Positions 7,926 to 46,470 of a DNA stretch of 64,000 bases are shown here, one piece after another; the first letter of the stretch is position 1, and each line of letters starts with the position of its first letter. The stretch comes from a virus (taxonomy: Duplodnaviria > Caudoviricetes). Made by a program: the position numbers and the translations under genes. Location of the stretch: the IMG/VR virus record IMGVR_UViG_3300025018_000093, one strand, 5' to 3'. Under the pieces are notes generated by a model, which was not told where the DNA came from, made no database searches, and saw nothing but the letters and a program-made list of their open reading frames with translations.

Positions 7926-8900
7926 ATGTCGGATGTGAAACGCGAAAAGGCCCTGTACTGGTCCTCTTACGACTGCTACACGAACTGTGCTCAGCGCTTT
8001 CTATGGAAGTATGGAAACAAGGAGATTGACCTTGGTGCCGGACTTGGGAAGCCAAAACCAGGAGCAAAGCGGAGTTCGGAGCATCACCAGATCATGGGAA
8101 ACACGATCCAGTATGCTGTGGAACGACTCTACAACGACTATCTCTGGCAGCGCCTCATTGCAAAGGATCCTGCGGAGCGGTGGTCCGAGCGACGCTTGGC
8201 GGAGGCTTTGATTCATATCGTGACGACGGACTTGGAGAGGAGGTTAAGCAGTGCCTACATAGAGTGGGCGTGGGCTCCCTCTCACAGAGAGATGGCGCAA
8301 ACGTGCATCGCAGGTGTCATCGGATTTCTCAAGACCATGAAAGCTAACCATCTGGTGGGGAATCCGGCGAAGGCAGAGCACTTTTTACGGGGCTATCTCA
8401 ATGACGTGCCCGTGGCCGCTAGGGTGGACCTTATCCTGGAAAGGAGTCCTGAGTTGCCCCTCCCAGGTGTGACGATCCTGGATGGAAAGAATAGCCAGGA
8501 AAAAGGGGTGTACACAAGTCCAGACCAGCTTCGTTTCTACGCCCTCACCTATTTGTTGGTGCGTGGAAAGCTCCCGGACAGGGTTGGGTTTGTCTACTAC
8601 AGGTTCCCTTACGGCACCCCCACCGAGGAAGGTGGCACTGAGTCTGGGATTGATTGGGTTCCCTTGGATAAGGAGGATATCCGGGGTCTTGCTCATAAGA
8701 TCGTAGCTGTCCGAGAAAGTATCCGAGAGATGAAGTTCGATGCAGATCCTGTCCCATCGAAGTGCAAATGGTGTGTGTATGAGGACATCTGTGCTCCAAG
8801 GCAGGCACAGAAACAAGTGAATCGAGAGAAGCGTAAGAAGAAGGGGGAGGAGGAAGCTTTCTCTTTCAACGCCGATGAGTTGTTCACCGAGATCGACTAG
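7926..8900 (+). CDS. PD-(D/E)XK RecB/AddB-like exonuclease with probable Fe-S cluster
   Basis: WSSYDCYTNC, RVDLI...ILDGK, QLRFY, C-terminal CKWCVYEDIC (1+3 Cys layout). Confidence 0.8.
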   Translation: MSDVKREKALYWSSYDCYTNCAQRFLWKYGNKEIDLGAGLGKPKPGAKRSSEHHQIMGNTIQYAVERLYNDYLWQRLIAKDPAERWSERRLAEALIHIVTTDLERRLSSAYIEWAWAPSHREMAQTCIAGVIGFLKTMKANHLVGNPAKAEHFLRGYLNDVPVAARVDLILERSPELPLPGVTILDGKNSQEKGVYTSPDQLRFYALTYLLVRGKLPDRVGFVYYRFPYGTPTEEGGTESGIDWVPLDKEDIRGLAHKIVAVRESIREMKFDADPVPSKCKWCVYEDICAPRQAQKQVNREKRKKKGEEEAFSFNADELFTEID

Positions 8901-8925
8901 GAGCTTCGTTAAGTTGCCATAGTAG

Positions 8926-8962
8926 CTGACAAACTGTACCTGTTTACATAGATTGTGAACAG
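8926..8962 (+). promoter_or_regulatory. sigma70-like IS607 promoter overlapped by an inverted repeat
   Basis: CTGACA-N17-TAGATT (8926-8954); inverted repeat CTGTTTACA-tagat-TGTGAACAG (8940-8962) runs into SD AGGAGG. Confidence 0.55.
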
Positions 8963-10616
8963 GAGGTGCTTGTGCAGTATGTCAACACCAAGACCGCACG
9001 TTCCTTGTTCGGTGTCCACCCTAACACACTTCGGAAATGGGCAAATGCAGGACAGATCAAGTACATACGAACTCCGTCGGGACGACGGCTGTATGACTGC
9101 TCATCACTGTCCTCCGTCCCCAGATCAAAAATCGTGTATGCCCGTGTGTCCTCACGAGGACAACGACACGACCTTGAATCCCAAATCCGAGCACTACGAG
9201 CTAGCTATCCAGACCACGAAGTGGTCTTCGATATCGCCAGCGGTCTTAACTTCAAGCGAAAAGGACTTGACTCCGTACTGGAGCGAGTTCTGTCTGGAAA
9301 GGTCGAAGAAGTTGTCGTTGCTCACAAAGACCGGCTCTGTCGGTTCGGATTTGAACTCTTCGAGTCCATTGCAAGATTCCACAACACAAGGATCGTGGTT
9401 CTCGACGCTGCACAGGAATCACCTCAAGCGGAGCTTGTCCGAGACCTTCTTTCCATCATCCACGTATTCTCCTGCCGTCTTTACGGCCTCCGAAAGTACA
9501 GTAAACAGATCAAGGAAGATTCGGATCTACCCAAGGCCGGAGAGCCTTCCGAGGATTCAGCAGTACCTGGGGATTTCGAGGTATTGGTACAACAAGGCGA
9601 TTGAGTACTTACGTCAAAAAGGTACGAAAGCTTCGCTGTATGAGGTTCGGAAGATTCAAGCTCTTGAACATCCCGAGTGGGCACTAACGTGCCCTCAGCG
9701 TATTCGTGAACACGCTATCGCAGACGCTTGCGCAGCAGTGCGCAATGCTAAGCGAAAGTTCGTGACTGTAGGCGGTTTTCAGGCAGTCAAATTCCGGTCC
9801 CGCAAGAATCCAGTACAGGGGTTCGGGTTTGATGCTCAGAGTCTCCACGAGACTTTTGTCTTCCGAGGGAAGAACACCTGCGGCTTCGCCGCAACAGAAC
9901 CATTCGAAGCAGAGCTAGAGGGTTGTAGGGTCAAACGAGAATCAGGGCGATGGTTTCTGACTCTACCCTGTCGGGTAGCTATATCCAAACCTGAGAACCA
10001 AAGGCTAGGAGTTGTAGCACTTGACCCTGGGGTACGCACGTTTGTTAGCTACTACAATCCGTTGTGTTCGGGCTCCTTCGGAGCCGGTGACTTTCGGCGT
10101 TTGTATCGGCTGTGTCTGGGGCTAGACAAGTTGATCTCGAAGAAGGCGCTTGCACCTTCGAAGTGTAAGCGGAACATGCGCAAAGCAGAGCAACGCTTAC
10201 GTTGGAAGATCAAAGATTTTGTTGCGGACATCCACAACAAAGTTGCTCACTTTCTAGCCACGAACTTCGATACGATTCTGATACCGTACTTCAAGACCAG
10301 TAAGATGGTTGGCCGCCTGCGGTCGAAGACCGCGCGCAGCATGCTGACGTGGGCACACCATCGTTTCAAGACAGTTTTGAAGTCGGTTGCAGAGCGCTAC
10401 AGCGCTCTGGTTGTCGAGGTATCAGAGGCTTGGACGTCGAAGACGTGTTCGTACTGCGGGGAAGTACAGAACATAGGTTCGAAGAAAGTCATGCGGTGCG
10501 CCTGCGGCGCGACCGTAGACCGTGATTCAAACGGTGCACGAGGGATTTTCCTTCGTGCTTTGTCGGCAACGACCTGGACGGGCGAACCCCGTCTTGCATC
10601 TGTTAGCAACAGTTAG
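8955..10616 (+). CDS. tnpB: IS607 TnpB RNA-guided nuclease, Fanzor-like rearranged RuvC (start uncertain; ATG 9138 is a candidate)
   Basis: KIRIYP, ALDPG, ILIPYF, VSEAWTSKTCSYCG, CACG, DRDSNGARGI. Confidence 0.9.
   Translation: MNRRCLCSMSTPRPHVPCSVSTLTHFGNGQMQDRSSTYELRRDDGCMTAHHCPPSPDQKSCMPVCPHEDNDTTLNPKSEHYELAIQTTKWSSISPAVLTSSEKDLTPYWSEFCLERSKKLSLLTKTGSVGSDLNSSSPLQDSTTQGSWFSTLHRNHLKRSLSETFFPSSTYSPAVFTASESTVNRSRKIRIYPRPESLPRIQQYLGISRYWYNKAIEYLRQKGTKASLYEVRKIQALEHPEWALTCPQRIREHAIADACAAVRNAKRKFVTVGGFQAVKFRSRKNPVQGFGFDAQSLHETFVFRGKNTCGFAATEPFEAELEGCRVKRESGRWFLTLPCRVAISKPENQRLGVVALDPGVRTFVSYYNPLCSGSFGAGDFRRLYRLCLGLDKLISKKALAPSKCKRNMRKAEQRLRWKIKDFVADIHNKVAHFLATNFDTILIPYFKTSKMVGRLRSKTARSMLTWAHHRFKTVLKSVAERYSALVVEVSEAWTSKTCSYCGEVQNIGSKKVMRCACGATVDRDSNGARGIFLRALSATTWTGEPRLASVSNS
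8972..9604 (+). CDS. tnpA: IS607 TnpA: MerR-like HTH plus serine recombinase
   Basis: GVHPNTLRKW HTH; YARVSS, DIASGLNFKRKG, HKDRLCRFG; GTG 8972 after AGGAGG. Confidence 0.95.
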   Translation: MQYVNTKTARSLFGVHPNTLRKWANAGQIKYIRTPSGRRLYDCSSLSSVPRSKIVYARVSSRGQRHDLESQIRALRASYPDHEVVFDIASGLNFKRKGLDSVLERVLSGKVEEVVVAHKDRLCRFGFELFESIARFHNTRIVVLDAAQESPQAELVRDLLSIIHVFSCRLYGLRKYSKQIKEDSDLPKAGEPSEDSAVPGDFEVLVQQGD

Positions 10617-10645
10617 CAGAAAAGGTAGCAGTACATGATGGACCA
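10500..10645 (+). ncRNA. putative TnpB omegaRNA/reRNA (boundaries approximate)
   Basis: Expected at the tnpB 3' end and right end by analogy; hairpin GACGGG-cgaac-CCCGTC at 10577-10593 and GTTAGCA repeats. Confidence 0.35.
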
Positions 10646-10913
10646 CAGCACCAGATTCCAGCAGGCGGTCAAGAAGCGAGATACGCTGCGAGGGAAGTTG
10701 GACCGCTTGCAAGGAAAGCTGGAGAGTGCGCAGTCGCGCCTCTCGGAAGTAGAGGCACAGTGCCGGGCAAAGAACATTGACCCCAGCCAGATCGATGAGC
10801 TGATTGAGAAGGTGGAGAAGATTCTTCTGGGGCGGGTCGAGAACATCGAGCAAAGAGTGCAGGAAGCTGAGGACCAGCTTGCCCCTTACCTTGAGGAGGT
10901 CGCGTCGCTATGA
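10635..10913 (+). CDS. small coiled-coil protein
   Basis: Continuous heptad pattern over 92 aa; overlaps the next start (ATGA). Confidence 0.7.
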   Translation: MMDHSTRFQQAVKKRDTLRGKLDRLQGKLESAQSRLSEVEAQCRAKNIDPSQIDELIEKVEKILLGRVENIEQRVQEAEDQLAPYLEEVASL

Positions 10914-12079
10914 AGTTGACAGCAAAGAAGGAGGATCTTGAGCGGGCGCTTAAGATCGGAAGTACCACTGTGGCAAACTCCGGTGACGAGTTGCGGGCAC
11001 ACTATCTTTTCCGCTACCGCAATGGGAAGATGGAGGTTCTGGGAAATGACGAGCGCCTTCTGGGAAGTGTCGTCCTAGAGTGCGAAGTTGAGGGGGCCTC
11101 CGACAATCCTGACGAGAACAGGTTTACCGTAGAGGCAGACCGAATCAATCGGTGGCTTTCCGCATCTCCCAAGGGAAACGTCTCTCTTCGATTGAAGGAT
11201 GGAAAAGTGATTGCCCAGGCAGCTCTGGGAAAGGTCACGTTCCGCTCTTTGGACCCCGCTCGGTTCCCGTACTGGGAGTCTCGGCTTGAAGCTGCTACCT
11301 TCACAGGGAAAATCTCTGCTTCGCGTCTGCATCGCATTCTGAAGCATGCCCAGTTGTTCATGTCCAACAACGAAGCCCAGGATCCCGAAATCTGCTCCTG
11401 TGAGTTCAAGGACAATGGGTTCCTGTACGCGACGGATGCCGCTTCTGCGACGATCATTCGTGTGGCTGGGATGGAGAAGTCGAATGCCAGGATGACGAAG
11501 AAGAAGGACATTAGCTCCTACCTCCGATTTCTGGAAGCGCACTCGGAAGACGAGATTGAGTTCTGGGAGCATGACCAGTGTCTGTTTTTGAAGACAAGTT
11601 CTGGAAACCTTTTCGGACAGACGAAGTGGAAGTATGACTTCCCGGATATCGACTTGGGGTCCGCCTTTGAGGATGCACACCACTGGTGGACCTTCTCACG
11701 GGAAGAGATGATTTCGGTGATTGGGTTCCTCACACCCAGTGCGGTCCGAGACCGCTACCAGATCCATTTCAAATTGGATGGCGTCGGGAACATTAACGTT
11801 TCCCTCACCTCCGCTGCGGGTGGAAAGGTGGAGATTCCGGTCAACTGCAAGGAATCCAAGTCCGTTGCCGATTGCGTCCCTCTCCCACAGGGTGGCTTCC
11901 CGTTGTCCTATGAGTACCTCAAGAGTGTCCTCAAGGGTTTGAGCGGAGAGTTCGTGACGATGGCCTCCAGCCAGCTCCTCAATGACGCGGGGGATCCTGC
12001 GGGTGGCTACTGCTCCTTCAAGCAGGAGGTGGAAGGCGACCAGTATCTTGTGGTGCTCGGTTGGTACGAGGAGCAATAG
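10910..12079 (+). CDS. dnaN: DNA polymerase III beta-clamp-like processivity factor
   Basis: 389 aa; MKLTAKKEDLERAL start, FPYWE/FPDID linkers, LYATDA; dnaX is nearby. Confidence 0.72.
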   Translation: MKLTAKKEDLERALKIGSTTVANSGDELRAHYLFRYRNGKMEVLGNDERLLGSVVLECEVEGASDNPDENRFTVEADRINRWLSASPKGNVSLRLKDGKVIAQAALGKVTFRSLDPARFPYWESRLEAATFTGKISASRLHRILKHAQLFMSNNEAQDPEICSCEFKDNGFLYATDAASATIIRVAGMEKSNARMTKKKDISSYLRFLEAHSEDEIEFWEHDQCLFLKTSSGNLFGQTKWKYDFPDIDLGSAFEDAHHWWTFSREEMISVIGFLTPSAVRDRYQIHFKLDGVGNINVSLTSAAGGKVEIPVNCKESKSVADCVPLPQGGFPLSYEYLKSVLKGLSGEFVTMASSQLLNDAGDPAGGYCSFKQEVEGDQYLVVLGWYEEQ

Positions 12080-29467: not shown

Positions 29468-32400
29468 ATGACGGGAGCCAAAGGAAGTCTAGGCGAATTG
29501 GCCCTTGGAGTGTCTCGCTCCAGGTCTGCCGTACGCGAAAGCGTCTCCGGTCAGGATGACTGTCCCAGTATTATTGACTTCATCGAAGCCCCCTGGGGCC
29601 TTGCCCAGAGGATGTTTCCAGTCCAGAAGGTCATTCTCAAAGCCTACTATGGCTTGGCTCTGGATACGAAGAAACGCAACGTTCGGATCACTGACTGGAA
29701 GCATCAGAACGAGCGCATTCTCACGGAAGCCGAGTACCTTGAGTGGCTTTACGAGCAGGGACGAAGCAATATCCGGGAAGTGGTCGCGGGGGACCGCCGT
29801 CGTGATCTAGTCCTGGCCATCGGACGTCGTTCTGGGAAATGTGTTTTGGGGGGCACCTTGGTCTTGACCAACCAAGGGCTACTCAAGATCCGTGACTTGC
29901 TTCCAGATCCGAATCTGCCCGAAAACCAGTCCGCGCCTTTGCGTGTGCAGGTGGCGCAGGAAGGAAGTCGTCGAGCGGACACCAGTCATTTCTACAATGG
30001 GGGTGTCAAGACAGTCCGTGAGTTGACGACACGGTGTGGGTACCAGCTTGGGGGGACGGACAATCATCGTATCAAGGTGCTGTATCCAGACGGTGCGGTG
30101 CGTTGGAAGTATCTGGCAGACTTGCGTGAGGGAGATATTGTGGCGGTCCATCGGGGGACAAACCTGTGGGCCGTAGATCCTGTAGATTGCCGTTCACACC
30201 ACGTGGCCTCTGGGCAGAAAGAGGTGCGTCTACCCGAGATCCTGGATGAACGCTGGGGCCTCTTGTTGGGGTGTCTTGTCGGAGACGGACATTGGACTAA
30301 GAGGTCCAGTGTTGCGATGACGATGGAAGATCCCGAGATGTGGGATCAGATGCAGGAGCTGTTCTCCGAGTTGCTCGGGCACAGCTCGACATACATGGAC
30401 AAGCGAACTGCAAACACAGGAGACCTCCAGTTTCATAGTGTTGCGGTTCGGGAGTTTCTGCACCGTCTTGGGTGGCGTTGGGATCTGGAGAGAGACCAGA
30501 AAGAGATACCCTGGTCGATTCTGCAATCTCCGAGGTCTGTTGTTGCTGCCTTCCTTCGCGGGTTGTTCGAGACGGATGGTTGCGCAGAGAGCCAGGGGCA
30601 AAGTGTTACTTTCTCTTCTGCTTCTGAGGTTCTAGCACGGCAGGTGCAGACCGTGCTGCTTAACTTCGGCATTGTCAGCTTTGTGTTCCCGAAGCCCGTG
30701 CATGACAAGACGTACTGGATTTTGCGGGTGCGTGGCACGAACTCCCGTCGCATATTTGCGCAGGAGATTGGGTTCCTGACTGATCGAAAGATGTGTCCGC
30801 TACTCGAATCTTTCAGGGAGGATCCTCGGGAGGGTGGGGACACCGAGGCAATCCCCTATCAGCAGGTTCTAGCGCGGCAACTTCTCGAATCGGTGCCCAA
30901 GAACGTTTCTGGTAAGGGATGGACGAGGTCTGCATTGCGTGCTGCTCTGGGGAATGTAATCAAGCCTTCTTCGGGTGAGCCGTTGACATACCCCAGGCTC
31001 CGAAAAGTCATCCAGATCGCTCGGGATGTAGAGGCACAAGACAGTGAGACTCTTGCCCACTTTCAGGGAGTTCTGGACACCAACTACTTCTTTGATCCCG
31101 TAGTCTCCATCACAGAGCGAGAGGAACAGGTATGGGATCTGACAGTCCCCAATGGCCATGCCTTTGTGGCCAACGGGATGGTCAATCACAACACCGAGAT
31201 GGCAGCCTGGATCACGTCTTACGAAATCTACAAGCTTCTGCGCAAGCCTAATCCCCAGGGGTACTACGGCATTCCTCCTGGAGACGAGATCAAGCTGTGT
31301 GCTGTGGCTACGGGTAGAGATCAGGCTGGGGAGCTATACGCCAAGGCGAAGCACTACTTCCTAGACTGCACCTTGTTCGACCCCTATCGGGCGAATATGA
31401 CGACCACCTACAGTCGTTTTCAGACCCAGCACGACATTGAAAGTTATGGGAGATACGGGGAGCACGACGTCACGCAGGCGACGATCAAAGCCACGTTCTA
31501 CTCCTGTATCGCAAAGGGTCTTCGTGGTGCTGGAAATATCGTGGTGGTGTTGGATGAGATTGCTCACTTTGTGACGAGTGGGCAGAGTTCAGGAAAGGAA
31601 GTCTATAAGGCGGTCACGCCTTCTATTGCTGCCTTCAGCCCTAAGGACCCGGACAAGTCCGTTTCGGCGGCACCCAGCCGAACAGATGGGCGAGTCATCC
31701 TGATTAGCTCCCCTCTGGGGAGAGATGGGTTCTTTTACCAGAAGTTTCGACAAGGGTTCGAACGTTCTGAGTCGATGCTGTGCATTCAGGCTCCAACGTG
31801 GGAGGTCAACCCTTCCATCTCGGCAGAGGACCTGGAAGGGTTCTACCTGGATGATCCCACAGATTTCTTCACGGAGTTCGGGGCAGAGTTCTCGGACCGT
31901 ACCCGAGGGTGGATTGAGCGCCGTGAGGATCTGGTGCATTGTATCGATCCAAAGTTGTCGCGACTCTTGAAAGCTCCGGCCCGGCAGCCGCACTTCATGG
32001 GGATCGACGTTGGTGTTACCAAAGGGGGCGACGGAACAGCTGTCGCCATTGGACACATTGACAAGAAACAGCAGATTGTCCTGGACTACATTGAGTGGAT
32101 ACGTGCTGGCGAGGGCAAGTACGCGCACCTGGAACGGCTGGACTTCGAGGATATTGCGGATTGGATTGTTTCCCTGGGGAAGAAGTTCCACATCACAGAG
32201 GGTATTATGGACCGCTGGGCGGGACTCCCAATGGAGCAGTACCTTCAGAAGAAGGGTATGCGTCAGATTGTCTCCCAGCTATTTACTCCGAAGGATACCA
32301 CGTTCATGTACAAGACCTTCAAGGACATGATGTGGGATGGTCGGCTTCGGTTGTACAACTGGCGACCCAACCCCACCGGGTCCTCAGGGGTGCTCCTGGG

Positions 32401-32764
32401 CAGTGCTGAGGAGGGCACTCTCTGTGATTACCTGGAAGAGCTGCTTAGTCTCCAGGAAGAGAAAATCAGCCGCCACGTCTCAAGTATTGAGGCACCCAAG
32501 TCTGGGGACAAGCATGACGACCGTTCGGATGCCCTGATTCGCATGGTATGGTTAGCAAGCCAGAAGCTCGGCAACCCCAAGTTTATTGCCGGGGGTGCCG
32601 GGGGTGCCTCTGCGTACGCCCGAGCAACGGGATATGGTAACCGTCCACAAACCCAGCTGGGCTTCTTACGCCGTGCCCGCTTGGGTGGAAGCCACCCAAG
32701 TCGACAGATCATCTCTCGGCTCACCGGAAATCCGGGTGGATTTCCGGGAGGAGGGAGGATGTGA
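29468..32764 (+). CDS. terL: terminase large subunit with intein
   Basis: Walker A GRRSGK|T split by the intein, Walker B VVVLDEIAHF, LISSP coupling motif, nuclease GIDVG...DDRSDA. Confidence 0.93.
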   Translation: MTGAKGSLGELALGVSRSRSAVRESVSGQDDCPSIIDFIEAPWGLAQRMFPVQKVILKAYYGLALDTKKRNVRITDWKHQNERILTEAEYLEWLYEQGRSNIREVVAGDRRRDLVLAIGRRSGKCVLGGTLVLTNQGLLKIRDLLPDPNLPENQSAPLRVQVAQEGSRRADTSHFYNGGVKTVRELTTRCGYQLGGTDNHRIKVLYPDGAVRWKYLADLREGDIVAVHRGTNLWAVDPVDCRSHHVASGQKEVRLPEILDERWGLLLGCLVGDGHWTKRSSVAMTMEDPEMWDQMQELFSELLGHSSTYMDKRTANTGDLQFHSVAVREFLHRLGWRWDLERDQKEIPWSILQSPRSVVAAFLRGLFETDGCAESQGQSVTFSSASEVLARQVQTVLLNFGIVSFVFPKPVHDKTYWILRVRGTNSRRIFAQEIGFLTDRKMCPLLESFREDPREGGDTEAIPYQQVLARQLLESVPKNVSGKGWTRSALRAALGNVIKPSSGEPLTYPRLRKVIQIARDVEAQDSETLAHFQGVLDTNYFFDPVVSITEREEQVWDLTVPNGHAFVANGMVNHNTEMAAWITSYEIYKLLRKPNPQGYYGIPPGDEIKLCAVATGRDQAGELYAKAKHYFLDCTLFDPYRANMTTTYSRFQTQHDIESYGRYGEHDVTQATIKATFYSCIAKGLRGAGNIVVVLDEIAHFVTSGQSSGKEVYKAVTPSIAAFSPKDPDKSVSAAPSRTDGRVILISSPLGRDGFFYQKFRQGFERSESMLCIQAPTWEVNPSISAEDLEGFYLDDPTDFFTEFGAEFSDRTRGWIERREDLVHCIDPKLSRLLKAPARQPHFMGIDVGVTKGGDGTAVAIGHIDKKQQIVLDYIEWIRAGEGKYAHLERLDFEDIADWIVSLGKKFHITEGIMDRWAGLPMEQYLQKKGMRQIVSQLFTPKDTTFMYKTFKDMMWDGRLRLYNWRPNPTGSSGVLLGSAEEGTLCDYLEELLSLQEEKISRHVSSIEAPKSGDKHDDRSDALIRMVWLASQKLGNPKFIAGGAGGASAYARATGYGNRPQTQLGFLRRARLGGSHPSRQIISRLTGNPGGFPGGGRM
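29840..31192 (+). mobile_element. intein with LAGLIDADG endonuclease (451 aa) in the TerL Walker A motif
   Basis: Starts CVLGGT; GTDNHR block B; LLGCLVGDG and LRGLFETDG; ends VNHN followed by +1 Thr. Confidence 0.93.
32677..32693 (+). repeat. 17-bp direct repeat, copy 1 (copy 2 at 33420-33436)
   Basis: CCGCTTGGGTGGAAGCC occurs at both positions. Confidence 0.85.
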
Positions 32765-43902: not shown

Positions 43903-46470
43903 ATGCATTGCGTCCACACCATGGAGAGTGCTATGGGAAGCTTGTCTTCGAGGGTCACAAAGGAAAGTCTGGAGAGACTTCACGCGGAGTGTACGGACAG
44001 GGAGGTGGCAGCCTTGTACGGGGTCACGGATGTGGCCGTGAGTCGCCTTCGGTACAGGTGGGGAATAACGACGCTCTCCCAGCGGGAACGCCGGGAGGTG
44101 CTGCGGGGGGCTGAAGGGTTATCTTTGGACACCCTGACACCCGCGAAGTTGGTGGACCTGTACACACAGATGGGGGACTCCCAGATTGGTGCCCTTTACG
44201 GTGTGTCAGGCACGACGATTCGGAAACTCCGGCAGGATTGGGGTATACTGAGTCTCTCCAAACGCGAGAGGTCTACCTCAGTAGGAGACTTCACGGAGGA
44301 CCAGAAGCAAATCTGCATGGGAACCCTGCTTGGGGATGGTCACCTCATGAAGCATGGAGTCTTGAAGATATCCCATGCTTGGCACCAGCTTTCGTACACG
44401 AGATGGTTGCAACGAGCGTTGCAACCGCATGCTCGCCCTCTCTTCTATGAAGAGAAACAGATGGATACAGGGACTCTGTGTTTTGCCTTCGGGTTTCGTA
44501 CCCAGGAGCATGTTTGGTTGCGGACCCTCCGAGGGATTTTTTACCCAGAGGGGAGGCGTATCTTTCCGCAGTCTGTTCTGGAGGAGTTAGGGCCTTTGGG
44601 CTTAGCGGTCTGGTACTTCGATGATGGGAACCTTGCGAGTGGCCTTCCCTCTTTTGCACTGGGGGAGATCAGCGACCAGGAAGCGGAAGCGGTATGTCAG
44701 AAGGTGCACCAGAGGTTTGGACTCGACACTTATGTCCGACCACAGTCCACGGAGACCTGCAAAATTATGGGGGTGCGCGGGGGAAGTGCTGACATCTTCT
44801 TTCACCTGGTGCGCTCTTATGCCACCCCAGATATGCTCCACAAGCTCCCCCAGAAACACTGGACCACACACGCTCCGCTTCACATCCACAGCACGCCCGA
44901 GAAAGGGATTCCGCAGGAGTTGGGAGAGCGGTGCTGTGCGTGGGACTCCCTAAGTGCACAGTCTAGGGAGACGCTCCTGGGGGACCTTGTGGCGTACTGG
45001 CACCAGCGGGGTTTCCCACATTACGTGCCCCGCCCCGAGGAACTGGAAACGCTGCTGTCCCTATCTGCGGAGCAGGTTCTCCGCAAGGATGGTCTTTCCT
45101 GTCGTCCACACAATGTGGGGCAGGCAACTTGCCAGGCGTTCGCAACGCACATCTGGGAGGCTCGTTCTTGGGGATCTAAGCAGAGTCCTCGGGAGATATT
45201 TGAGGATGCAGACGCTCTTGGTAAAGCAATGTGCGCTCGCCTCACGGCCCGCAGTAAGACGCAAAAAGGACGTGTGGCACCCATGTCCGCAGCGGAGGTT
45301 CGTGTCAGTATCCGTTCCTGGAAGCTCTCCGGGGTGTACAATTTCAGACCGAGCCTAGCCAAGATACTAGTAGACTTGTACGGCACTCCTGGAGGGACTG
45401 TGTATGATCCCTGTGCTGGATATGGGGGAAGGATGCTCGGTGTGGTGCTTTCCCAGCATGTGATGCGTTACGTAGGGTGCGACCCCCATCGGGAGGGGAT
45501 CGCGCGTCTCGGTTCTTTCGCAGGTTGGTTGGAGGAGTACCTTCCAGGAGTGTCTTCCAGGGTGTCTTTGCATGTCACTCCTGCAGAGGACTTCTATCCA
45601 CCCCCCTGTGATCTTGTGATCACGTCTCCTCCCTACTGGTGTCGCGAGCAGTATGAAGACTCCCCACAGCAGTCCGGGGTACGGTACCCCACATACGCGG
45701 CATGGCTGGAAGGATTTTGGTCACGTGTACTTGGAGCTTCCTATCAAGCTCTCCGTCCGGGTGGGTGGATGCTCCTGAATGTGGATGACTTCACCATTGG
45801 GCAAACCTCATATCCTCTGGTGAAGGACACTTTGGATCTATGCCGAGACCTCGGTCTCCATCTGGAAAAGACTTTCCGCTATGAGATGCCGAGGTTTGCG
45901 CAGCGGAGAAATCATGAGTCTATTCTGGCTTTGGTCAAACACGGAGATGCCCGTGAAGTGACCCCGGCTGCCAAAATGACACTCTCTCGTTGTACCCAAT
46001 GTGGGTGCGTGTTACCTGCGAGGGAGCTTCGGGAAAAACGGTGCTCCGACTGCCGAAAGCCAAAGACACATATTGTGGTCTGTGAGGGCTGTGGGCAAAA
46101 GCTGGAGGCTCATCGGGGAAACCGCCGCTTCTGTTCTGAGAACTGTAGGGCTCGGCACCACCGAAAGAAAAAGTCCGAGGGGAGGGGTGCTATCGTGCGT
46201 TCCTTCCTCTGCATCTCTTGCGGGAAGACTTGGGAGACGGAAGCTCAGGGAAGTTTCAAATGGTGCCCTGTGTGCCGGGAGAGGGAGGCAATCCAAAAAA
46301 GGACGCAGACGTGCGCGTATCACCATTGCGGGAGAGAGTTCGTTGACACCACCCCGAAAAACTCGATGAGTTACTGTCATCCAGAGCATCGTCGTCGCGA
46401 GAAGTTGTTTCGCTCTGGTAAGGCGAAGGATTTGAGCTACTTCCGAAGTCCAGATCCCGTGCTGGGATAA
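43903..46470 (+). CDS. fusion: 2xHTH + LAGLIDADG_2 endonuclease + N4C/N6A DNA methyltransferase + Zn ribbons
   Basis: EVAALYGV..VSRLR / QIGALYGV..IRKLR; GTLLGDG and AVWYFDDG; NFRP, VYDPCAGYGG, ITSPPY; at least 4 CxxC pairs plus CSENC. Start may be 43921 or 43933. Confidence 0.85.
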   Translation: MHCVHTMESAMGSLSSRVTKESLERLHAECTDREVAALYGVTDVAVSRLRYRWGITTLSQRERREVLRGAEGLSLDTLTPAKLVDLYTQMGDSQIGALYGVSGTTIRKLRQDWGILSLSKRERSTSVGDFTEDQKQICMGTLLGDGHLMKHGVLKISHAWHQLSYTRWLQRALQPHARPLFYEEKQMDTGTLCFAFGFRTQEHVWLRTLRGIFYPEGRRIFPQSVLEELGPLGLAVWYFDDGNLASGLPSFALGEISDQEAEAVCQKVHQRFGLDTYVRPQSTETCKIMGVRGGSADIFFHLVRSYATPDMLHKLPQKHWTTHAPLHIHSTPEKGIPQELGERCCAWDSLSAQSRETLLGDLVAYWHQRGFPHYVPRPEELETLLSLSAEQVLRKDGLSCRPHNVGQATCQAFATHIWEARSWGSKQSPREIFEDADALGKAMCARLTARSKTQKGRVAPMSAAEVRVSIRSWKLSGVYNFRPSLAKILVDLYGTPGGTVYDPCAGYGGRMLGVVLSQHVMRYVGCDPHREGIARLGSFAGWLEEYLPGVSSRVSLHVTPAEDFYPPPCDLVITSPPYWCREQYEDSPQQSGVRYPTYAAWLEGFWSRVLGASYQALRPGGWMLLNVDDFTIGQTSYPLVKDTLDLCRDLGLHLEKTFRYEMPRFAQRRNHESILALVKHGDAREVTPAAKMTLSRCTQCGCVLPARELREKRCSDCRKPKTHIVVCEGCGQKLEAHRGNRRFCSENCRARHHRKKKSEGRGAIVRSFLCISCGKTWETEAQGSFKWCPVCREREAIQKRTQTCAYHHCGREFVDTTPKNSMSYCHPEHRRREKLFRSGKAKDLSYFRSPDPVLG

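Follow-up and report, generated by a model that had tools for sequence, protein, structure and literature searches.

A Fanzor2-like N-terminal domain of TnpB is probably encoded inside the tnpA gene of an IS607 element in a phage genome

The window analyzed here, a 64,000-nt stretch of DNA from a virus of the Caudoviricetes (Duplodnaviria; IMG/VR record IMGVR_UViG_3300025018_000093), contains a 1.7-kb insertion sequence of the IS607 family (Table 1). The arrangement is that of the family, with tnpB located 3′ of tnpA on the same strand and with conserved subterminal end motifs rather than long inverted repeats. The TnpA protein is composed of a MerR-like helix-turn-helix (HTH; residues 14-43) followed by a resolvase catalytic domain (residues 56-176), both identified by Pfam, and its gene most likely starts at GTG 8972 as judged by Shine-Dalgarno spacing, 8966 being an alternative edge of the open reading frame (ORF). 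The TnpB ORF (8955..10616; 553 aa) is in the +1 frame relative to tnpA. It follows a TAG at 8950-8952, ends with the stop at 10614-10616, and contains no stop across the whole of tnpA. Since Pfam places the canonical TnpB start (HTH_OrfB_IS605, profile position 2) at residue 183, corresponding to nt 9501, both the ORF list and Pfam confirm the 182 open upstream codons that had been noticed in a first-pass annotation of the window. Taken as a whole, the evidence presented below makes it highly probable (about 0.88 by our own estimate) that this extension is a real, translated N-terminal domain of TnpB, homologous to that of Fanzor2 nucleases and dual-coded inside tnpA, and that the window holds an intact IS607 element within a phage genome.

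Near position 9501, the TnpB frame offers no ATG or GTG, the only alternative nearby being TTG 9435, while further upstream there are in-frame ATGs at 8979, 9045, 9093, and 9138. When the tnpA gene of the window was shuffled by exchanging synonymous codons, the probability of finding no stop in the +1 frame was 0.28 for codons 1-75, 0.027 for codons 76-177, and 0.003 for the whole gene. The window itself provides modest evidence for a frame that is kept open.

We therefore turn to relatives of the element, which carry most of the argument. A protein search returned 933 relatives, many of which are 446-551 aa long and share 50-60% identity over 80-93% of the 553-aa frame. Since this search and the first locus search may favor long forms, 160 further loci were gathered from metagenomes and viral contigs, including giant-virus metagenome-assembled genomes, using the TnpB core alone as a query. 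In nearly all of those that have an adjacent tnpA, tnpB is in its +1 frame and is open for 88-200 codons 5′ of the canonical start, with core identities reaching down to 26%. The same +1, upstream-open arrangement is seen in 80 loci from bacterial genomes. For a quantitative comparison, we used strict ORF definitions and a set of 75 non-redundant elements sharing <75% nucleotide identity with one another (58 of them picked by the core alone), the expected number of stops being derived from shuffles that preserve both TnpA sequence and codon usage. In tnpA codons 81-180, no +1 stop was observed when ~288 were expected; the +2 frame shows the expected number of stops, and in codons 1-20 +1 stops are in excess. 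No +1 stop lies past tnpA codon 75, the equivalent of about nt 9197 in the window. This comparative stop depletion is the decisive evidence for dual coding. It also delimits it, since 59 of the 75 relatives have +1 stops inside codons 1-75, with a stop at codon 20 being common to 29 of them but missing from the window. Hence, the earlier proposal that tnpA is entirely overlapped by the TnpB frame is true of the window and does not extend to the family, in which the last ~100 codons are always open and the first 75 are often stopped. Public gene calls for equivalent loci come in both short (about 355-390 aa; P0084, P0097, and P0116) and long (450-550 aa) forms; at locus L184, for example, the frame of the short call P0097 is open 133 codons upstream. 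The short calls in this clade are probably truncated; given the open frame upstream at their loci, they were rejected as support for a canonical start.

Table 1. Coordinates in the window of the IS607-family element and its features (approximate or putative where indicated)
Feature	Position	Strand	Basis or remark
IS607-family element, ends approximate	8903..10631	+	Right-end motif; left end bounded by neighboring gene
Promoter-like site CTGACA-17-TAGATT, left end	8926..8954	+	Consensus scan, 9/12 matches; promoter function putative
Shine-Dalgarno AGGAGG	8961..8966	+	5 nt 5′ of tnpA GTG 8972; 12 nt 5′ of TnpB-frame ATG 8979
tnpA, IS607 serine recombinase	8972..9604	+	Pfam MerR 3.8e-8, Resolvase 2e-18; catalytic YARVSS
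Non-conserved 5′ part of open TnpB frame	8979..9196	+	Relatives often with stops; P(open by chance) 0.28
Conserved TnpB N-terminal domain, putatively overprinted	9197..9500	+	+1 frame of tnpA codons ~76-177
tnpA 3′ tail over canonical TnpB core, 104 nt	9501..9604	+	ORF list; overlaps in relatives
Canonical TnpB core, WED/REC/RuvC/zinc finger, pro-Fanzor type	9501..10616	+	Pfam, invariant columns, AlphaFold2
Candidate omegaRNA/reRNA scaffold	about 10412-10460 to 10631	+	Overlaps tnpB 3′ end, stops at right-end motif GAAAGGTAGCAG

Constraint on the encoded extension can be read in the codons of tnpA. The probability of finding the same codon given the same residue is 0.31-0.37 in codons 1-60, rises to 0.50-0.60 in codons 81-120 and 141-160, and reaches 0.73 in codons 181-200, where an overlap with the TnpB core is acknowledged; the trend in third-position entropy agrees. 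Two sites illustrate how this comes about. Leu103 of TnpA is encoded by CTG or TTG in 72 of 74 relatives and is followed by a codon starting with G in 73 of 75, which produces the Trp of a PYW motif in the +1 frame. Similarly, an xTG codon at position 142 (71 of 75) followed by GTT for Val143 (70 of 73) produces the Trp-Phe of an SWF motif. In the alignment of the 75 extensions, residues W48, L59, S86, W87, and F88 reach conservation levels of 90% or more, close to those of catalytic residues, and W48, L59, and SWF are all intact in the window copy, where the motifs lie at 9279-9281 (Trp codon of PYW), 9312-9314 (Leu), and 9393-9401 (SWF).

Moreover, the domain persists where tnpA has been lost. 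Seven relatives (L043, L223, L086, L198, L199, L021, and L023) are devoid of tnpA, the former tnpA frame being full of stops, and still carry the domain 5′ of the core, with PYW/LWLP/SWF-type motifs that are now single-coding. A hidden Markov model (HMM) of the extension alone matches these relatives exclusively in the TnpB frame, with E values of 2e-24 to 5e-8. These copies are best read as derived. Separately, 31 of 168 loci (e.g., L090, L200, L011, L025, and L051) combine an open tnpB frame with a tnpA that is truncated or interrupted by internal stops, in agreement with a published figure of about 30% pseudogenes among IS607 TnpAs (PMC11061315).

The extension is homologous to a domain of known structure. 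A profile covering extension and core matches mimivirus L79, also known as ApmFz2 (PDB 9b0l), with an E value of 1.4e-68 and an alignment starting at L79 residue 77, in which the SWF of the window TnpB pairs with an SWY upstream of the "KIRIYP" strand that L79 has at residue 133. Likewise, 9b0l is the best structural match for an AlphaFold2 (AF2) model of the 492-aa form of TnpB, with a Z score of 26.7 over 395 residues (model 44-480 versus chain 53-518), whereas the structures of ISDra2, ISFba1, and Cas12f align only from model residue ~120. In ApmFz2, a disordered nuclear localization signal (NLS; residues 1-53) precedes a structured N-terminal domain (residues 53-130) that is absent from other TnpB structures and comprises two functional parts: RuvC-R (residues 65-91), which completes the RuvC fold while also contacting the guide RNA, and a basic thumb (residues 109-130), which clasps DNA near the target-adjacent motif (TAM) (PMC11832414). 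HMM and structural alignment thus both find an N-terminal domain with RuvC-R and thumb in the window TnpB, over much of which AF2 confidence is low. The first-pass annotation had seen a likeness to the W-containing N-terminal extensions of Fanzor2 proteins, which is strengthened by these findings, since the extension is homologous to the Fanzor2 domain and SWF aligns with SWY. Judging from its mimivirus homolog, the domain would supply a segment reinforcing RuvC, a contact with the guide RNA around SWF, and a thumb clasping target DNA next to the TAM.

The core that follows is that of a TnpB. Its RuvC triad consists of the RuvC-I Asp in a DPG motif (10023-10025), a relocated Glu in SEAWTSK (10425-10427), and the RuvC-III Asp (10524-10526), and residues D357, E491, and D524 (numbering of the 553-aa form) are invariant in alignments of relatives. 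A zinc finger of the CxxC...CxC type is formed by C498, C501, C515, and C517. The RuvC-I motif reads ALDPGVRT, while the canonical RuvC-II position reads ILIPYF and has no Glu. The combination of DPG and an alternative RuvC-II Glu, here the invariant one in SEAWTSK, defines pro-Fanzors and Fanzors (PMC10711439), and the window TnpB displays it. The AF2 model of the core has a predicted local distance difference test (pLDDT) score >90 and Z scores of 24.7-26.7 to TnpB and Fanzor2 structures, 24.7-24.9 in the case of ISDra2 TnpB. Nevertheless, this is a prokaryotic/phage TnpB of the pro-Fanzor type and not a Fanzor2 proper, because it is surrounded by phage genes (clamp, clamp loader, and terminase) that use Shine-Dalgarno sites; its leader, on reading, is neither basic nor NLS-like. 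Relatives with DPG, the alternative Glu, and the overlap are found, according to the titles of records L001-L080, in Poribacteria, Chloroflexota, Myxococcota, Thiomargarita, Parachlamydia, Synergistales, and phage contigs.

Could the open frame arise without a second protein, as a by-product of constraints on TnpA, codon usage, or RNA structure? Only about four +1 stops are expected per gene, and a single gene such as that of the window could be open by chance. However, shuffles that keep TnpA sequence and codon usage fail to reproduce the depletion seen across relatives, which is confined to one frame and spares the first 20 codons. In addition, the domain is visible in a cryo-EM structure, and its persistence, motifs included, where tnpA has been lost excludes by-products of TnpA or RNA constraint. 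This explanation is effectively refuted. A second possibility is that TnpB is made only from near its canonical start, with TTG 9435 or some other non-ATG codon used for initiation, and that the upstream frame is an untranslated relic. TTG 9435 is indeed only 22 codons 5′ of the core, public callers sometimes give forms of 354-389 aa in relatives, and ATG 9138 is not preceded by a Shine-Dalgarno. Yet pairing of the region before TTG 9435 with the anti-Shine-Dalgarno (anti-SD) is weak (-3.3 kcal/mol), with a GGAG only 1 nt away, short calls such as P0097 lie in upstream-open frames, and a relic would gain stops, of which none is found in the 75 relatives. Since there is no good start codon near 9500 and all the conserved residues of the extension are intact in the window, we consider a start there highly improbable.

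Even less probable, in our opinion, is a programmed +1 (or -2) frameshift that would fuse the N terminus of TnpA to TnpB, the frame being open only past the shift site. The +1 relation is constant in all loci and the open zone always begins within tnpA, as a frameshift would entail, and IS1 and IS3 produce fusion transposases by -1 frameshifting. Against this, 72 of the 75 relatives have their own in-frame ATG 5′ of the conserved domain, the domain persists in relatives in which the loss of tnpA leaves nothing to shift from, and ApmFz2 made from an ATG of its own is both structured and active (PMC11832414, PMC10530073). No conserved slippery site was noticed in the alignments, in which no formal search for one was made. 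A dual-coded N-terminal domain is thus the explanation we favor. Several points do weigh against it. The 75 elements share a phylogeny and, despite having <75% nucleotide identity, are not fully independent; the openness of the first 75 tnpA codons in the window is not significant by itself; and translation of the extension in the window is deduced from sequence comparison and modeling. Furthermore, ATG 9138, the last ATG before the conserved domain, has no Shine-Dalgarno (ΔG +0.4 kcal/mol for anti-SD pairing) when most genes of this phage have one. Finally, AF2, provided with 75 sequences, models most of the extension with low confidence, the only ordered parts being a helix at residues 50-58 (pLDDT ~82) and a strand at residues 90-94, with the leader downstream of ATG 9138 scoring only 26-32. 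Low confidence would be expected of a domain that becomes ordered on RNA or DNA, yet it offers no positive support.

The start of TnpB translation is a separate matter, for which several ATGs are candidates. In the 72 relatives with an in-frame ATG between the last +1 stop and tnpA codon 85, this ATG is often 3-14 codons past that stop. The first ATG most commonly falls at tnpA codons 23-26, which align with ATG 9045 of the window; in some relatives the start is at tnpA codon ~82, and in about ten it is a few codons from the tnpA start, several highly divergent elements from viral contigs, among the most divergent of all, belonging to this last group. The 29 relatives with a stop at codon 20, which are among L081-L240, then have an ATG at codons 23-26. 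This combination points to a conserved internal TnpB start in relatives just after the part of tnpA encoding the HTH. In the window, ATG 8979 has an anti-SD pairing energy of -11.6 kcal/mol, compared with a median of -8.2 for the genes of this phage and a background of -3.3, while pairing is weak (about -4) for ATGs 9045 and 9093. The first-pass annotation had named ATG 9138 as the likely start. This has not been borne out, since that codon is not favored over 8979, which could use the AGGAGG of tnpA, or 9045, which occupies the commonest position in relatives. We infer that these three ATGs are the candidates, 9138 being the last possible one. Twin starts with a full overlap of 626 nt are plausible, and only that, because over the first ~75 codons there is no conservation and the openness is not significant; if translated, 8979..9196 would encode a poorly conserved leader, whose counterpart in ApmFz2 (residues 1-53) is disordered (PMC11832414).

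The element is inserted in a densely packed, one-strand array of genes of a large phage, which include genes encoding a sliding clamp, clamp loader, terminase, and PD-(D/E)XK nuclease as judged by the gene list and Pfam. A search of sequencing runs traced the DNA of the window to aquifer metagenomes and turned up no RNA run containing it. The PD-(D/E)XK nuclease gene (stop at 8900) lies immediately upstream of the element, and a small coiled-coil ORF and the sliding-clamp gene lie downstream. While the right end is fixed at 10631 by a motif common to relatives, the left end is bounded only by the upstream stop and by the motif CCTGTT.ACATA shared with relatives, at about 8937-8952. At the position of the promoter-like site, relatives have TTGACA, which is often perfect. 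A BLASTN search of 50,697 phage records with the element as query gave no match, and no empty-site variant was found, contigs from four sequencing runs over 8500-11000 yielding no joint. The overlap between tnpA and the canonical core is 34-205 nt in relatives and lower in a few giant-virus elements. At the 3′ end of tnpB, RNAalifold predicts a structure of 24 pairs, 8 of which show compensatory changes, in 12 relatives (the window and L081, L083, L084, L092, L096, L101, L103, L162, L184, L001, and L002). This is probably an omegaRNA/reRNA scaffold, with a guide drawn from flanking phage DNA from 10632 onward; an Rfam scan of 8800-11200 with E values up to 1 matched no family. Elsewhere in the window, a LAGLIDADG homing-endonuclease domain (PHROG 11023, 2.2e-20) spans residues 129-318 of an 855-aa ORF (43903-46470), with other phage-protein matches on either side; this could be an intein or else a homing-endonuclease fusion. 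The large-terminase homolog at 29468-32764 is unusually long (1098 aa), with terminase matches only at residues about 529-1035.

How does this compare with known systems? ApmFz2, the best match in both sequence and fold and the one that covers the extension, shares with the window TnpB the DPG RuvC-I, the relocated RuvC-II Glu, the zinc finger, and an N-terminal domain with an S-W-aromatic motif before the "KIRIYP" strand. The two proteins are only 21% identical. ApmFz2, from an amoeba-infecting giant virus, is equipped with a basic NLS leader, and its thumb is highly basic, whereas the window protein belongs to a bacteriophage and its leader is not conserved. The paper describing the ApmFz2 structure makes no mention of the domain overlapping tnpA (PMC11832414). 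Pro-Fanzor TnpBs of IS607 elements have the same DPG/alternative-Glu RuvC and an IS607 serine TnpA as a partner, and they were considered exclusively cyanobacterial (PMC10711439). Here, many cyanobacterial relatives (36-45% identity) show the same overlap, but the clade is wider, extending to phage contigs, Poribacteria, Chloroflexota, Myxococcota, and other phyla. The words "overlap" and "N-terminal" do not occur in the text of that report. The TnpBs of ISFba1 (PDB 8iaz, with a RAGATH-18 reRNA; PMC11061315) and ISDra2 (8exa and 8h1j) are, like that of the window, RNA-guided nucleases of insertion sequences with a WED/REC/RuvC/zinc-finger core (Z 21.9-24.9); in contrast, they begin at the canonical start and lack the N-terminal domain in structural alignments, and ISDra2 TnpB has the canonical RuvC-II Glu (PMC11832414) in place of the relocated one. 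The nearest published statement is that IS607 ORFs "often overlap" (PMC6188088). What we describe is not a short junction but a conserved, structured domain of ~100 residues inside the recombinase catalytic domain, with an overlap in the window of up to 626 nt, and we found no description in the literature searched of a TnpB N-terminal domain overprinted on tnpA.

According to the explanation we favor, a nuclease of the pro-Fanzor/Fanzor2 lineage would begin at least ~100 residues upstream of "KIRIYP" rather than there. Its N-terminal domain would occupy the +1 frame of the part of tnpA that encodes the second half of the catalytic domain of the recombinase, and about 400-630 nt of DNA would thereby encode two proteins. 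The tnpA frame is the older of the two because it encodes a widespread resolvase catalytic domain, and an upstream extension of the tnpB frame into this pre-existing gene would have created the domain. Overprinting, as the first-pass annotation had suggested, is the most economical origin because the domain, which other TnpB clades lack, is contained entirely in tnpA. A more far-reaching scenario, which we regard as doubtful, is that the domain was born de novo in the recombinase frame and that nuclease and transposase are held together by this physical interlock in bacteria, phages, and giant viruses alike, a single Shine-Dalgarno serving twin starts 7 nt apart (GTG 8972 and ATG 8979), the whole of tnpA being read twice, and the TnpA:TnpB ratio being set by competition between start codons.

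These findings have implications for the family as a whole. A structured and functionally important part of an RNA-guided nuclease was apparently created inside the reading frame of another gene, and bacteria, phages, and giant viruses have all retained the arrangement. The domain that sets the Fanzor lineage apart is thereby given a concrete origin, and the arrangement may help explain the joint treatment of TnpA and TnpB similarities in a co-conservation analysis of this lineage (PMC10711439). The probable truncation of public calls of about 360-390 aa is relevant to the mining of compact genome editors. More generally, these elements provide a large natural data set for studies of overprinting.

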